DNA of 64,000 bases from contig NC_090364.1 in assembly GCF_035084215.1 (NCBI RefSeq), positions 3,410,001 to 3,474,000 of the forward strand, written 5' to 3'. The notes under the pieces were generated by a model. It did no database searches, was not told where the DNA came from, and worked only from the letters and a program-made list of their open reading frames with translations. The stretch's first letter is position 1, and each line of letters begins with the position of its first letter. Origin of the DNA: Heptranchias perlo. Lineage: Eukaryota. Both the position numbers and the translations under genes were made by a program. Below, in pieces: positions 3,379 to 45,250 of the stretch.

Positions 3379-3804
3379 GGAGAGACTGGAGAAGCTGGGG
3401 TTGTTCTTCTTAGAGCAGAGAAGGTTAAGGGGAGATTTGATCGAGGTGTTCAAAATCATGAAAGATTTTGATAGAGTAAATTAGGAGAAACTGTTACCAG
3501 TGGCAGGAGGGTCAGTAACCAGAGGACACAGATTTAAGGTGATTGGCAAAAAAACCAGAGGCGACATGAGGAGAAAAAAATATTTCTGCAGCGAGTTGTG
3601 ATGATCTGGAATGCACTGTCTGAAAGGGCGGTGGAGGCAGGTTCAATAATAACTTTCAAAAGGGAATTGGATAAATACTTGAATGGAAAAAATTTACAGG
3701 GCTATGGGGAAAGAGCAGGGGAATGGCACTAATCGGATAGCTCTGCCAAAGAGCCAGCACAGGCACGATGGGCCGAATGGCCTCCTTCTGCGCTGTATCA
3801 TTCT
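3379..3804 (+). mobile_element. CR1 3' fragment inserted into the GPR146-like C-terminal codons
   Basis: CR1 ORF2 end plus tail; 7-bp target-site duplication ATGATGT at 3372-3378 and 3805-3811. Confidence 0.9.
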
Positions 3805-4820
3805 ATGATGTCTGCCCCTGAAACTGTTACGACGTGTTGCTGGCGTATCTCGCGCCCCTTTATGCCGCACTGCACGTCTTGGATCACCAGCCTTAGTCTG
3901 GCGTCAAAGGTTTTCTGCAGATATTTGTATAACATGGGCACCACGCAGGTGCTGGTGTAAGCGAGCAGCTCGCACGCCCCTCTCAGAAAGTGAAGCACGT
4001 CGGCAAACCCAGTGTCGTCCTTCGTCTTAGTCACAAAGTGGGCAGTGCTCACCAATAGAGTCAGGTAGTACGGCAACCAGAGGGCAAACTGCACGAGGAC
4101 CGTGGCCAGGAGAAGCCTCCGGACGGAAGGGTCGAGGTGCGAGGATTCCTCCAGCTGAGGTGGCCGGTCTTGCCGGGCACTGAGAATGAGCCGGAAGGCG
4201 TAGCTCACTCCGACGGCGGGAACCACGAATCCGGTGAAGAACATGATGGCGTCCCCTAGCTCCTTGGTCTGGAGTTTTGAACAGTCGTGGACCTCGTCCG
4301 AGACCTTGCTGCAGACATAAAAGAGGAGGGAGGAGAAGCTGGCCAGGGCAGCCCCGCCCCACACAAAACTGCAGACGTGCTTGGTGTTGTAAACGCTTGA
4401 CATGTAGGTGTGAGGCAAAGCTTGCTCAATGAAACAGTCCAGGCTGAGCAAAGTGGCAGAGTGAATGCTCACCAGCGCTGCCATGTTGAACAAGATGAAA
4501 GAGGCCATGCAGATCTCCCGGCCAAAGGTCCACACTGGCCAGATGAGGTGGTCGGGGCCTAGAAGCTGCAGAAAAGCCACCAGGTTCAGGACCAAGCCAG
4601 CCAATGCCATATTGGTGAAGTAGACATCAGGCATGTTGATGGACAGCTTGTGACGAAGGTTGACAACAAGAACCAAAACATTGAAGATAAGGCCCAGCGG
4701 AAAGCAGAAGATGAGGTAGGCCATCGAGGCAATTGACAGGACCATGCCGACATTGTAGCAAAGGTCATCTTTGCACCGTGTACTGTTGGATCCAAAGTCC
4801 CCTTGAATACAGCTCCACAT
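3798..4820 (-). CDS. GPR146: G protein-coupled receptor 146-like, 340 aa, single coding exon
   Basis: 7TM pattern; motifs MWSC, MPDVYFTNMA, IEQALPHTYMSSVYNTKHVCSFVWGGA, SFSSLLFYVC, RLLLATVLVQFALWLPYY closely match GPR146; ortholog versus paralog unresolved. Confidence 0.9.
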   Translation of the reverse strand: MWSCIQGDFGSNSTRCKDDLCYNVGMVLSIASMAYLIFCFPLGLIFNVLVLVVNLRHKLSINMPDVYFTNMALAGLVLNLVAFLQLLGPDHLIWPVWTFGREICMASFILFNMAALVSIHSATLLSLDCFIEQALPHTYMSSVYNTKHVCSFVWGGAALASFSSLLFYVCSKVSDEVHDCSKLQTKELGDAIMFFTGFVVPAVGVSYAFRLILSARQDRPPQLEESSHLDPSVRRLLLATVLVQFALWLPYYLTLLVSTAHFVTKTKDDTGFADVLHFLRGACELLAYTSTCVVPMLYKYLQKTFDARLRLVIQDVQCGIKGREIRQQHVVTVSGADIIE

Positions 4821-39969: not shown

Positions 39970-40132
39970 ATTGGCTGCATCCCATCCCACTGCCTCCTAC
40001 ATCTTTCCCAGTCTGCTCCTGGATCTATAAAAGAGTTCACATTGACTTCAGTCAACGCCACAGACGGAAAGTGCAGAGTCCTGGAGCATTGGGAGGAACC
40101 AAAGCTTTTATCCAGCGGAGGTGCACAGAGAG
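39970..40132 (+). promoter_or_regulatory. Promoter and non-coding exon 1 of the CGRP-type gene
   Basis: Inverted CCAAT (39970), TATAAAAG (40026-40033), Inr-like TCAGTC (40048), strong donor GAG|gtaaga after 40132; CALCA also has a non-coding exon 1. Confidence 0.65.
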
Positions 40133-40585: not shown

Positions 40586-41270
40586 GCTACTGAGTGTGAG
40601 GTGTAACAGAGAGAGTGTTATAACTGAGAGTCTAATACTGAGTGTGGGGTGTAACAGAGAGAGTGTTATAACTGAGAGTCTAATACTGAGTGTGGGGTGT
40701 AACAGAGAGAGTGTTATAACTGAGTCTAATACTGAGTGTGGGGTGTAACAGAGAGAGTGTTATAACTGAGAGTCTAATACTGAGTGTGGGGTGTAACAGA
40801 GAGAGTGTTATAACTGAGTCTAATACTGAGTGTGGGGTGTAACAGAGAGAGTGTTATAACTGAGAGTCTAATACTGAGTGTGGGGTGTAACAGAGAGAGT
40901 GTTATAACTGAGAGTCTAATACTGAGTGTGGGGTGTAACAGAAAGAGTGTTATAACTGAGAGCCTTTTGCTGAGTGTGGGGTGTAACAGAGAGTGTTATA
41001 ACTGAGAGCCTTTTGCCGAGTGTGGGGTGTAACAGAGAGAGTGTTATAACTGAGAGCCTTTTGCCGAGTGTGGGGTGTAACAGAGAGAGTGTTATAACTG
41101 AGAGCCTTTTACTGAGGGTGGGGTGTAACAGAGAGAGTGTTATAACTGAGAGTCTTTTACTGAGGGTGGGTGTAACAGAGAGAGTGTTATAACTGAGAGC
41201 CTTTTGCCGAGTGTGGGGTGTAACAGAGAGAGTGTTATAACTGAGAGCCTTTTACTGAGGGTGGGGTGTA
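40586..41270. repeat. 46-48 bp minisatellite, about 14 copies, intron 1
   Basis: Unit actgagtgtggggtgtaacagagagagtgttataactgagagtctaat. Confidence 0.95.
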
Positions 41271-41348
41271 TCCTGGTTGATACTTTGCCCAGTGAGGGGC
41301 AGGGTAGCGATGCCCTCTCACCCTCTCATGTGTTATTTGCAGGCTGCC

Positions 41349-41431
41349 ATGTTTCTGGCGAGGATCCCCCTATCGATGGTCCTGCTTTGTGCCTTGGCTG
41401 TGGCGACTACTTCAGACCTCTCCTCTCTCAG
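41349..41431 (+). CDS. CGRP-type prohormone, signal-peptide exon (MFLARIPLSMVLLCALAVATTSDLSSLR)
   Basis: Acceptor tgttatttgcag| at 41342, Kozak gccATG, hydrophobic core, phase-2 donor AG|gtgggt splitting an Arg codon as in CALCA exon 2. Confidence 0.82.
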
Positions 41432-42526
41432 GTGGGTGATAATCTCTCTCTGGGCTTTTCCTCTCATTTCTTCCTGTGGAGCAGATCGGGATCAGGATCA
41501 GGATCAGGACTGCTTGTAGATCCGTTGGGACGGGAATGTCAGATGGGAATCTTGTTTATTTCCAGATATCTTCCTTTGCTCTCCTACGGCGCTGACTCTT
41601 TCTGCAGTACTGTTCCATGACACCACCCTCCCTCCTTAGACCTGAGCCTAGGCAGTGAGGCAATTTGACCATGGGGTGCATCACAGCTGAGCCCAATAAT
41701 ATCCTCAACCGACATACTTTCCAGAGATAGTGATGAGGAGCAGGAACACCAGCTGACTTCCTTATCCTCGTTCCCTCACCCGGGGCATTGAGATTCCAAC
41801 CACTGCCCCATCTCACATCCACTAACTCAGCACTGATCAGGAATCAGATTTGGGATCACCCTGGGATTTGTGTAGCTCAATAACACACCAGTTGGAATAT
41901 TCAACCACTGAGGCATCGCGGGAGGGTAAAGGGGGAGATTTCTTTTCTCCCGCTTCTCCGTTGGTTGGAACTGAGAAATCCCTCAGACAGTGCCAAAGGA
42001 AAGACAGAGCAAGGGCCTGCATTTATATAGTGCCTTTCACATCCCAAAGAGCTTCACAGCCAATGAGGTACTTTTGAAGTGTAGTCATTATTGTAATGTA
42101 GGGAACGCGGCAGCCAAATTGAGCACAGCAAGATCCCACAAACAGCAATGAGATAATGACCAGGTCACTGTTTTAGGTGTTGGTTGAGGGATAAATATTG
42201 GCCAGGACTCCGGGGAGAACTCCCCTACTGTTTTGAAATAGTGCCCTGGAATCTTGTATGCCCACCTGAGAGGGCAGACGGGGCCTCGGTTTAACATCTC
42301 ATCCGAAAGACGGCACCTCTGACATTGCAGCACTCCCTCAGTACTGGCACCGGGAGTCTAGATTTTGTGCTCAAGTCTCTGGAGTGGGATTTGAACCCAC
42401 GACTGTCTGACTCGGAGGCGAGAGTGTGGAGTGTGCGCTGAGGTTTATACTCCTGGTGTTCTGACCGAGGGCCTTTATCTTTTGCTCGCGTCAGCAGCTG
42501 ACACCCGGGCTTTTGTTCTGTTTCAG

Positions 42527-42661
42527 ATCTCCAGCGACCCGACACTTAGGAAAGATTCTTATCCGTCGTGTGGATGGACACTATTTAGCAGGATCAACAC
42601 AACAACTCCAGCTGCCCAATCCCGCACTATCGTACGTGCAGGAGCAGGAGAGATCAAAAAG
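42527..42661 (+). CDS. CGRP-type prohormone, pro-region exon (SPATRHLGK...SYVQEQERSKR)
   Basis: Acceptor ttttgttctgtttcag|, phase 2-2, 135 nt; YVQ..EQER resembles CALCA exon 3 DYVQ...EQEQER. Confidence 0.78.
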
Positions 42662-42814
42662 GTGTTTCCCGTCTGTCAGTCAGTGTCTCCATCATCCCGC
42701 CTGTCGGTCAGTCTGTCTGTCTCTCTGTCTTCCTGCCTCTCTGTCTGTCTGTCTTTCTGTCTATCTGCCTCTCTGCTGTCTGTCTGTGTGCCTGCCTCTC
42801 TTTTCTCTGTCTGC

Positions 42815-43000
42815 CTCTCTGTGTGTCTGCCCCTCTGTCTCTCTGTGTGTCTGCCCCTCTGTCTCTCTGTGTGTCTGCCCCTCTGTCTCTCTGTGTGTCT
42901 GCCCCTCTGTCTCTCTGTGTGTCTGCCCCTCTGTCTCTCTGTGTGTCTGCCCCTCTGTCTCTCTGTGTGTCTGCCCCTCTGTCTCTCTGTCTGTCTGCCT
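42815..43000. repeat. 24-bp minisatellite upstream of the CGRP exon
   Basis: (ctgcccctctgtctctctgtgtgt)n, about 7 copies. Confidence 0.95.
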
Positions 43001-43085
43001 CCTTTCCTCCCTCGCTGTCAGTCTAACTCTGCCCTGACTGCCATGTCAGCATTTTGACCCTTTATTTCCCGATCTTTTCTCGCAG

Positions 43086-43254
43086 GCTCTTCCCTCTCCG
43101 TGTGCAGAAACGATCCTGTAACACTGCCACGTGTGTCACGCATCGCCTGGCCAACTTCCTGAGCCGCTCTGGGGCAGTGGGCAGCAGCCGTTTCATCCCC
43201 ACCGACGTCGGGGCAAGAGCGTTTGGGAGAAGGCGCCGAGAGGCTCAGATGTAG
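43086..43254 (+). CDS. CGRP-type prohormone, mature-peptide exon (37-aa CGRP-like peptide at 43114-43224)
   Basis: KR|[37 protein letters not shown]|G-RRRR-EAQM*: Cys2-Cys7 ring, C-terminal Phe, Gly amide donor, polybasic site; acceptor ttttctcgcag|. Confidence 0.95.
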
Positions 43255-43448
43255 CAAATCCATTGACTCACACAGGTAGAACCTTCCGGTAATTATACAA
43301 TACTGCTGACAAGGTGGGGGTGGGACACCAGCCACTGGGACCTCACTCAAGCCGCCATTCTTTATGTGTGAGCCTAGACAGCGAGCCTCATCCGGCAATT
43401 CGACCATGGGGTGAAGTAAATGAATGTCTATAAATGTTCATGCTATAG

Positions 43449-43830
43449 TCAGAGGGGCAGACAGACAGAGAGACAGAGGGGCAGACACACAGAGAGACAG
43501 AGGGGCAGACACACAGAGAGACAGAGGGGCAGACAGACAGAGAGACAGAGGGGCAGACACTCAGAGAGACAGAGGGGCAGACAGACAGAGAGACAGAGGG
43601 GCAGACACACAGAGAGACAGAGGGGCAGACAGACAGAGAGACAGAGGGGCAGACACTCAGAGAGACGGAGGGGCAGACACACAGAGAGACAGAGGGGCAG
43701 ACACACAGAGAGACAGAGGGGCAGACACACAGAGAGACAGAGGGGCAGACACACAGAGAGACAGAGGGGCAGACACACAGAGAGACAGAGGGGCAGACAC
43801 TGAGGCAGGCAGACAGAGACACAGACAGAG
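43449..43830. repeat. 24-bp minisatellite downstream of the CGRP exon, inverted relative to 42815
   Basis: (acacacagagagacagaggggcag)n, about 15 copies. Confidence 0.95.
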
Positions 43831-44085: not shown

Positions 44086-44408
44086 TCTGACACTCTATAA
44101 TACATTAAAAGTCTTGCACATAGAGTGCACTTCCTGTAACATCACACATCCTTCCTGTCACACTTCCTCTGTCACACCACTCTTGTTATAAAATAGCGAA
44201 TCCTTCGACTCATGACGAGCAACTCCAGGGGAGATCTGCCAGCCCATAATAATCACTAAAAGTGATTTTTTTTTTTCTAGACAGTAGCAAGTAGGTCTCG
44301 GTTAATCTGAATAAGAAGCTTTTTGATACATTAGAGATATAAATACATGCCATCTTTCTGATATCTGATCCCCGTTAATCAAACTTTTTTCTCTCCTTTT
44401 CTCTTCAG

Positions 44409-45250
44409 CCTGATTGGGACGCCCTGTTCAAACTGTCCAGCCGTATGATGTCTGGACTCAGCTCGACTTTGCCGAAATTACAACTCGCCTGATTGTGTTG
44501 CCGTCTCTTTCCCGCAGTTTCTGAATTTCTGTCATGTTACCAGGACGCTGGACCCCAGGGAACATGGGGCACAGGATGGCACCATGCCCACATCTCCTAC
44601 AGTGCATTGTCACCCCGCCATCAGTATCAGGCTCTCAGTTATAACACTCTCTCTCTTACACCCCACGCCCTCGGTATAAGACTCTCAGTTATAACACTCT
44701 CTCTGTTACACCCCACCCTCAGTATCAGGCTCTCAGTTATAACACTCTCTCTGTTACACCCCACCCTCAGTATCAGGCTCTCAGTTATAACACTCTCTCT
44801 GTTACACCCCACCCTCAGTATCAGGCTCTCAGTTATAACACTCTCTCTGTTACACCCGCCCTCAGTATTACACTCTCAGTTATAACACTCTCTCTGTTAC
44901 ACACTCCACCCTCAGTACTCTCATTTTTTAAATATTAATTCTCGTGATGTGGGCGACACTGGCAAGGCCGGCATTTATTGCCCATCCCCTAGTTGTCCTG
45001 AGACGGTGGTGGTGGGCCGTATTCTTGATCCGCTGTAGCAGTTTTATAAACCTGAGTGACTTGCTAGAAAGAAAGATATACTTGAAAACTATTCCAGATG
45101 TCATACTCCTGTGTCAGGCTGCCTGTGGGTTGCCTATGTAGTATCTGAGGTTCTGTATTCTGCTTGAATAACTCATTGACTTGTGTCTCAATTGTATTAA
45201 GGAGTGAAGCATTAAGGATATATTAATAAATATTTTCAACAATTTACAGT
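44409..45250 (+). other. Candidate 3'-UTR terminal exon of the CGRP-type gene
   Basis: Donor CAG|gtagaa at 43275, 21 nt after the stop; strong acceptor ttttttctctccttttctcttcag| at 44408; AATAAA at 45225; mirrors CALCA exons 5-6. Confidence 0.6.
44620..44918. repeat. 48-bp minisatellite, about 6 copies, inverted relative to 40586
   Basis: Unit cagtatcaggctctcagttataacactctctctgttacaccccaccct. Confidence 0.93.

Follow-up and report, generated by a model that had tools for sequence, protein, structure and literature searches.

Gene content of the window

The window (the whole 64-kb stretch of Heptranchias perlo DNA analyzed here) contains a gene of the calcitonin/CGRP family, with a TMEM86A-like gene and a GPR146-like receptor gene upstream and the start of a PSMA1-type gene downstream. 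No second family member was found within these 64 kb. The following features were placed.

3798..4820, minus strand: GPR146-like receptor, single coding exon (Pfam 7tm_1; first Atlas cluster "G-protein coupled receptor 146," 0.99)
24322..35216, plus strand: TMEM86A-like lysoplasmalogenase, upstream neighbor (Pfam YhhN, E = 5e-31; P0122 maps here)
40026..40032, plus strand: putative promoter TATA box, TATAAAA, ~100 bases before the first donor (sequence signal only)
40055..40132, plus strand: putative noncoding exon 1, start approximate (donor GAG/GTAAGA after 40132)
41343..41431, plus strand: exon 2, ATG at 41349, signal-peptide region, phase 2 end (P0001 residues 1 to 28, splice sites, X5 depth)
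42527..42661, plus strand: exon 3, pro-region, 135 bp, phase 2 end (P0001 match; X7 record 32)
42662..43085, plus strand: intron at the place of CALCA's calcitonin exon, 424 bp, neither exon nor remnant (HMM, tblastn, Pfam, composition)
42810..42999 (looser from 42716), plus strand: 24-bp tandem array within the intron (repeat search; unbridged by short-read contigs of run X1)
43086..43275, plus strand: CGRP exon with KR, 37-residue peptide, Cys2-Cys7, Phe-Gly-RRRR, and stop at 43252 to 43254 (Pfam, PDB)
after 43275, plus strand: predicted donor closing the CGRP exon
43450..43800, minus strand: inverted array of the intron's 24-bp unit, 14.6 copies, past the CGRP exon (repeat search)
44409..45250, plus strand: probable noncoding last exon, AATAAA at 45225, end approximate (compare CALCA exon 6)
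62593..62637, plus strand: PSMA1-type exon, 45 bp, downstream neighbor (AG/GT bounded; 13 of 15 residues; PDB E = 1.5e-4 to 6e-4)

The coding exons (41349 to 41431, 42527 to 42661, and 43086 to 43254) translated letter for letter to P0001, which is XP_067830269.1, an NCBI prediction from H. perlo on a 20.26-Mb contig named "calcitonin gene-related peptide 2-like"; the gene is already machine annotated. Both coding introns are in phase 2, each splitting an arginine codon, and the arginine at the exon 2/exon 3 junction aligned with an arginine of bony-vertebrate CALCA precursors. Sequence signals suggest that noncoding first and last exons flank the coding exons; those for the last exon were a polypyrimidine-CAG acceptor ending at 44408 and the AATAAA at 45225, followed by a T-rich tract.

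The CGRP exon matched Pfam PF00214 (E = 1.5e-18; 68 to 71 bits against a cutoff of 22.3), as expected of the calcitonin/CGRP/IAPP family. Its peptide is of CGRP type, with 37 residues, Cys2-Cys7, a preceding KR, and a terminal Phe followed by Gly and basic residues, as are those of five ray orthologs. The best PDB match of the mature peptide was human CGRP (E = 2.6e-11; 24 of 37 residues), with IAPP chains at 3.1e-8 or weaker. Identity amounted to 27 to 30 of 37 residues with 13 CALCA-type CGRPs, 19 to 21 with 8 amylins, and 31 to 33 with the 5 ray orthologs. By analogy with the family, the signal peptide would be cleaved, the precursor cut at KR and RRRR, the Phe amidated, and the Cys2-Cys7 ring closed, and the peptide may act on CLR/RAMP1 or CTR/RAMP1 receptors in a vasoactive or neural role. 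The pro-region exon (42527 to 42661) also encodes a conserved stretch (P0001 residues 36 to 45) with a dibasic RR in four of five aligned species; together with another basic site, where the exons meet (residues 72 and 73), it might allow the release of a further peptide of ~30 residues.

Repeats surround the gene. The 24-bp arrays at 42810 to 42999 and 43450 to 43800 flank the CGRP exon in opposite orientations, and their pairing in the pre-mRNA could loop out this exon or alter its splicing. Members of a 48-bp repeat family likewise lie on both sides of the gene, oppositely oriented, at 40588 to 41270 (intron 1) and 44611 to 44917 (presumed last exon). Stops and frameshifts interrupt the endonuclease and reverse-transcriptase frames of a near-full-length LINE (54230 to 57100, plus strand), and 48% of the window's sequence recurs elsewhere in it.

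The TMEM86A-like gene (21762 to 35216, plus strand) has four annotated alternative N termini and main coding exons at ~27028 to 27293 and 34790 to 35216. Its protein was 71 to 77% identical to eight other shark proteins and 61 to 63% identical to two ray proteins. Comparison with Atlas and PDB did not tell TMEM86A and TMEM86B apart, and the gene may be TMEM86B or a third TMEM86 paralog. The GPR146-like gene upstream of it is GPR146 itself or a paralog. The PSMA1-type exon, whose reference was mammalian proteasome alpha type-1, lies 17 kb downstream of the CGRP gene on the same strand, and a candidate first coding exon (ATG/GT) was found at 60830 to 60832. Across this gene start (60830 to 62637, plus strand), 2 of the 15 exon residues were unlike mammalian PSMA1; if sharks also keep canonical PSMA1, the PSMA1-type gene would be a retained second alpha-6 proteasome subunit gene. 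A weak Pfam match to neuromedin U at 60856 to 60984 on the plus strand (E = 0.0047, falling below the cutoff, in 1 of 130 frames, with no amidation signal after it) is probably due to chance.

The intron between the pro-region and CGRP exons

In CALCA, the calcitonin exon, with its own poly(A) site, is placed between the pro-region exon and the CGRP exon. Neither this exon nor its poly(A) site was found at that place in the H. perlo gene, where a 424-bp GT..AG intron (42662 to 43085) separates the pro-region exon (42527 to 42661) from the CGRP exon (from 43086). An initial annotation of the sequence had described this intron as CT-rich and largely composed of a 24-bp repeat, and the description held: its bases are T174, C153, G80, and A17, the tandem array at 42810 to 42999 contains 7.9 copies with 98% matches, and with a looser 48-period array from 42716, repeats make up ~284 of the 424 bases.

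The same annotation had claimed that the intron is devoid of both calcitonin coding sequence and AATAAA. Its three plus-strand frames contain neither a lysine nor a dibasic pair and together a single glycine, which leaves no way to read a calcitonin exon's KR...GKK frame in it. A profile HMM search was run in six frames over all 64 kb with stops as X; the only match to the HMM, built on the calcitonin-exon products of five proteins, was to the CGRP exon, with 3.7 bits. A tblastn search of the intron with calcitonin-exon products of five proteins yielded at most 15.4 bits (E = 0.12), and Pfam assigned no family to any of the six open frames over it. Both parts of the claim were thus confirmed, a motif search of the intron having found neither AATAAA nor its common variants; since only 33% of 424-bp windows of this 64 kb carry AATAAA/ATTAAA, the absence of a poly(A) signal is weak evidence by itself.

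Read contigs across the gene

Four runs were placed as contigs on 41280 to 43445 only, a stretch with exon 1 and the last exon outside it. Runs X5 and X6 (RNA runs by guess) and DNA run X1 came from one sample. Contig 24 of X6 aligned with 43084 to 43209 without differences and carried 29 extra letters at its start. In the bin that contains the last bases of exon 3, X6 depth was 2.66, which equals 6.7 × 29/73 and therefore identifies the 29 extra letters as the end of exon 3. X5 contig depth fit joins of exon 3 to the CGRP exon and of exon 2 to exon 3. We infer a direct exon 3-CGRP exon join from these contig ends and depth arithmetic, as opposed to a listed joint; a dispersed intron 2 repeat took up the joint table of the read contigs. 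Exon 3 would then be spliced directly to the CGRP exon, with the other exons and phases of CALCA kept. Zero cover by X5 and X6 in the bin from 42667 to 42739, within the intron, was not counted as evidence, and an X5 contig at 43298 to 43445 (depth 2.1) fell in the presumed last intron and was unhelpful in placing the last exon.

X1 contigs matched both flanks of the array without differences (42374 to 42694 and 43014 to 43445), the array core being unbridged. In X7, from another organism, record 32 differed by 27 letters and 3 gaps over 42422 to 42646, a span that takes in most of exon 3; X7 also covered part of the CGRP exon.

Orthologs and searches for relatives

Among the 120 listed of 411 matches, six rows were from cartilaginous fishes, all of the CGRP-only type, and a second search added two species. 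The gene was found in one shark (H. perlo) and six rays (Pristis, Narcine, Hypanus, Hemitrygon, and two Mobula species). Isoform labels were absent in six of the seven species, and the two isoforms retrieved from Mobula hypostoma were both CGRP; most bony-vertebrate rows, by contrast, were labeled as later isoforms. No calcitonin product was present among the ray ortholog proteins retrieved from six species. The intact frame, the six ray orthologs with CGRP products alone retrieved, and the RNA-type contigs support the description of the locus as a CGRP-only gene, as originally proposed.

A TMEM86A-like ortholog and the CGRP-like gene were on contigs of equal size in five of the six rays, with accessions 1 to 6 apart in four of them; no TMEM86A-like copy was retrieved for Pristis. 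Galeomorph sharks have the TMEM86A-like gene, and no CGRP-like ortholog was retrieved from them. When 1.84 billion representatives were searched with a profile, 98 matched, of which P0005 alone scored as this clade; this set collapses members within 50% identity, and P0005 is a member of the query alignment. Chondrichthyan CALCA or calcitonin was found neither among the 120 listed of 411 matches nor among 19 representatives looked up from the profile search. A word-index search with the pro-region gave four candidates, of which P0001 alone was correct; it missed the ray orthologs too and was therefore uninformative. None of 109 pattern matches from a metagenome scan was confirmed.

Assignment among CALCA, amylin, and other paralogs

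N-terminal identity was 21% between this gene and CALCA, 23% between this gene and IAPP, and 23% between CALCA and IAPP. Within groups, it was 68% among CALCA proteins from teleosts to platypus, 53% between shark and rays, and 31% among IAPP orthologs. The signal and pro-region of this gene were 14 to 32% identical to those of CALCA, compared with 51 to 83% among 10 bony vertebrates. This divergence is suggestive of paralogy and not proof of it, because IAPP orthologs share only 31%.

Trees were built from 30 proteins hand-picked from ~245, a set without adrenomedullin, calcitonin, or chondrichthyan CALCA. Six CGRP-only orthologs formed one clade (UFBoot, 96 to 98) whose position was unplaced, and AU tests on full precursors rejected none of four placements. 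The amylin clade (UFBoot, 96 to 100) formed without the CGRP-only gene, which has His10 and Phe-amide in place of the Gln10 and Tyr-amide of amylin. Separate chondrichthyan amylin-type Tyr-amide precursors were found in whale shark, elephant shark, and sawshark (P0192, P0190, and P0223), and the whale shark has its amylin-type gene and its TMEM86A-like gene on different contigs (50.6 Mb and 21.8 Mb, respectively). Amylin identity is ruled out by these separate precursors, by His10 and Phe-amide, and by the identity of 19 to 21 of 37 residues. Visual inspection had suggested that the pro-region is linked to that of amylin, but the scores did not bear this out (mean z of 2.1, against 2.8 for CALCA).

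A coelacanth precursor, P0180 (XP_005991017.1), named "islet amyloid polypeptide-like isoform X2," is in fact a Phe-amide 37-mer and an extra family member, identical to CGRPs at 20 to 23 of 37 residues and to amylins at 15 to 18. Its orthology with the H. perlo gene was unsupported (20 to 21 of 37 residues; the trees do not join them), and for the peptide-region alignment an AU test (rough constrained search, P = 0.013) rejected its grouping with the CGRP-only clade. The N-terminal region of the lamprey precursor P0215 resembled the CALCA pro-region (mean z of 2.5) slightly more than that of this gene or amylin (~1), hinting that both calcitonin-less genes may have drifted from an ancestral pro-helix.

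Origin of the CGRP-only gene

We consider it probable, with some reservation, that the gene is a CALCA paralog of sharks and rays, an old and most likely genome-doubling duplicate whose calcitonin exon was lost before sharks and rays split. The CALCA neighborhood would have been duplicated most likely in the second vertebrate genome doubling, and the direction of the later change would be from presence to loss of the exon. The N terminus, as distant from CALCA as CALCA is from IAPP, argues for a duplicated CALCA block, as does the PSMA1-type exon downstream on the same strand, an arrangement shared with human CALCA. In human, PSMA1 follows CALCA in the same orientation, with CYP2R1 and PDE3B in between, and CALCA itself is flanked by CYP2R1 and INSC. 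Human TMEM86A is on the same arm as CALCA, with the TMEM86 and PSMA1 types megabases apart, and human 19q13 holds TMEM86B and ADM5 together with paralogs of 7p22 genes. The GPR146-like/TMEM86-like/CGRP-like/PSMA1-type block on a small chromosome looks like a compacted, gene-poor copy of the CALCA neighborhood left by a genome doubling. Duplicate status is supported, but not proven, by the neighbors and the divergence, no shark CALCA having been retrieved.

Loss of the exon has a precedent, because CALCB of mammals makes CGRP only (PMC6283891). According to the same review, Ciona CT resembles calcitonin in its Cys1-Cys7 and Pro-amide, and amphioxus peptides are also Pro-amides; splicing of two CT-type exons is already found in a gene of a sea cucumber (PMC12638048). 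With the Pro-amide ending already present in ascidians and amphioxus, the calcitonin type is probably the more ancient of the two exon types, which makes loss likelier than an ancestral CGRP-only state. The calcitonin-type exon is thus probably inherited, which implies an ancestor with two exons and more than one loss, amylin and mammalian CALCB being examples. The initial annotation had left both options standing, loss after duplication and a preserved CGRP-only state; the Pro-amide outgroups favor the former and weaken the latter. Its further point, that the gene bears on the origin of CT/CGRP alternative splicing, holds less directly than claimed, as the gene would then be one more exon loss.

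Retention of the ancestral CGRP-only state in the same old duplicate, with CALCA gaining its calcitonin exon later by exon duplication or by capture of a tandem CT-type gene, is unlikely, though it deserves to be weighed first. CGRP/amylin-type peptide alone is seen in amylin, this gene, the lamprey and hagfish precursors P0215 and P0235, and coelacanth P0180, so that one gain would take fewer steps than several losses, and the intron from 42662 to 43085 holds no calcitonin remnant. The lamprey and hagfish precursors retrieved are CGRP-type, and the CGRP exon type therefore predates jawed vertebrates; the lamprey precursor, without an isoform label, fits the ancestral-state and loss readings equally well. 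However, the lack of isoform labels in cyclostomes is weak evidence, and over several hundred million years any remnant would be expected to disappear. The C termini of the invertebrate outgroups resemble that of calcitonin, so a late gain by exon duplication would need a convergent return to Pro-amide and a seven-residue ring.

Rather less probable is a segmental duplication of the CALCA block within cartilaginous fishes, before the shark-ray split, with loss of the calcitonin exon in parallel to mammalian CALCB. Among the matches listed, orthologs were found in elasmobranchs only, the mature peptide is close to CALCA CGRP (27 to 30 of 37 residues), and coelacanth P0180 shares only 20 of 37 residues, with its grouping rejected as described above. 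This origin is at odds with an N terminus as distant from CALCA as that of IAPP, and the joining of TMEM86 and PSMA1 types, megabases apart in human, with a GPR146 type added, suits a gene-poor genome-doubling copy. No bony-vertebrate TMEM86A occurred among the 54 candidates of the TMEM86A-like search, a search of low sensitivity.

An equally doubtful proposal is that the gene is a third CGRP/amylin copy of the genome doublings, a CALCA sister on an ADM5-type small chromosome, present in coelacanth too (XP_005991017.1) and in a precalcitonin state; if so, alternative splicing of CT and CGRP would have begun in CALCA after the second doubling and not before.

It is improbable that the gene is the elasmobranch CALCA ortholog itself, with a fast-evolving pro-region and calcitonin on a separate gene. 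The neighbors are of PSMA1 and TMEM86A type, no other shark CGRP was retrieved among the matches listed, and calcitonin occurs in stingray (PMC6283891), all of which would suit it. Against it are the N-terminal identity of 21%, compared with 68% conservation of CALCA from teleosts to platypus, and the lack of any P450 or phosphodiesterase Pfam match in 130 downstream open frames, a search that short exons can escape. Concealment of a calcitonin exon by assembly collapse at the 24-bp array is very improbable: the X1 short-read contigs leave the array core unbridged, but they match both flanks exactly, the RNA-type contigs are compatible with a direct exon 3-CGRP exon join, and six other species in separate assemblies gave CGRP products alone among the proteins retrieved, the concordance of seven assemblies making a collapsed repeat unlikely.

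Significance

The locus holds a real, conserved, and probably old further member of the calcitonin/CGRP family. According to a 2018 review (PMC6283891), no CGRP gene was then on record for cartilaginous fishes. In the model it reviews, CGRP is paired with adrenomedullin 1 on one ancestral chromosome and amylin with adrenomedullin 2 on another, and adrenomedullin 5, on a third chromosome, has neither CGRP nor amylin as a partner. A conserved CGRP-only paralog with duplicated CALCA neighbors could fill this partner gap, and elasmobranchs would gain a second candidate ligand for CLR/CTR-RAMP receptors. Together with cyclostome gene structures, the order of calcitonin-exon gain and loss becomes testable. 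A literature search found no description of this paralog. The accessible text of PMC5207463, PMC4362833, PMC13311285, PMC11010885, PMC3961327, and PMC7118120 held nothing on the gene, and 12 of the 26 supplementary files of PMC12638048 and 12 of the 17 of PMC7118120 held nothing usable on it. Sekiguchi 2022 (Gen Comp Endocrinol 328:114123), which lay beyond the scope of that search, described CT/CGRP-family candidates from cartilaginous-fish genomes (as cited in PMC9832379), and these may include the CGRP-only gene. The significance is bounded by the existing machine annotation, by possible coverage in Sekiguchi 2022, and by the likelihood that the gene is one further exon loss.

Comparison with known systems

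Coelacanth P0180 is likewise a Phe-amide 37-mer beside canonical CALCA (P0039 and P0002), with a Ser-Cys start and a Leu10 as in Narcine; unlike an ortholog, it shares 20 to 21 of 37 residues with the CGRP-only clade and joins it in no tree. IAPP also lacks a calcitonin product and has a 37-residue peptide with Cys2-Cys7, but identity is 19 to 21 of 37 residues, and His10 and Phe-amide here stand against Gln10 and Tyr-amide in IAPP. Mammalian CALCB/CRSP genes resemble the H. perlo gene in a product of CGRP type only (for CALCB, PMC6283891); they sit in tandem next to CALCA, and the human peptides are 92% identical (PMC6283891), whereas this gene is far older and has no second family member within 64 kb.

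Compared with CALCA (in teleosts, CGRP1 and CGRP2), the gene lacks the calcitonin exon and its poly(A) site, has an N terminus only 21% identical, in which the conserved CALCA pro-helix is barely recognizable, and has a TMEM86A-like gene directly upstream on a 20-Mb contig. It shares with CALCA a 37-residue Phe-amide peptide (27 to 30 of 37 residues identical), signal, pro-region, and peptide exons in phase 2, probable noncoding first and last exons, and a PSMA1-type gene downstream. Vertebrate CGRP genes are described with a six-exon layout (PMC6283891), and this layout minus the calcitonin exon is that of the present gene, if the predicted outer exons hold.
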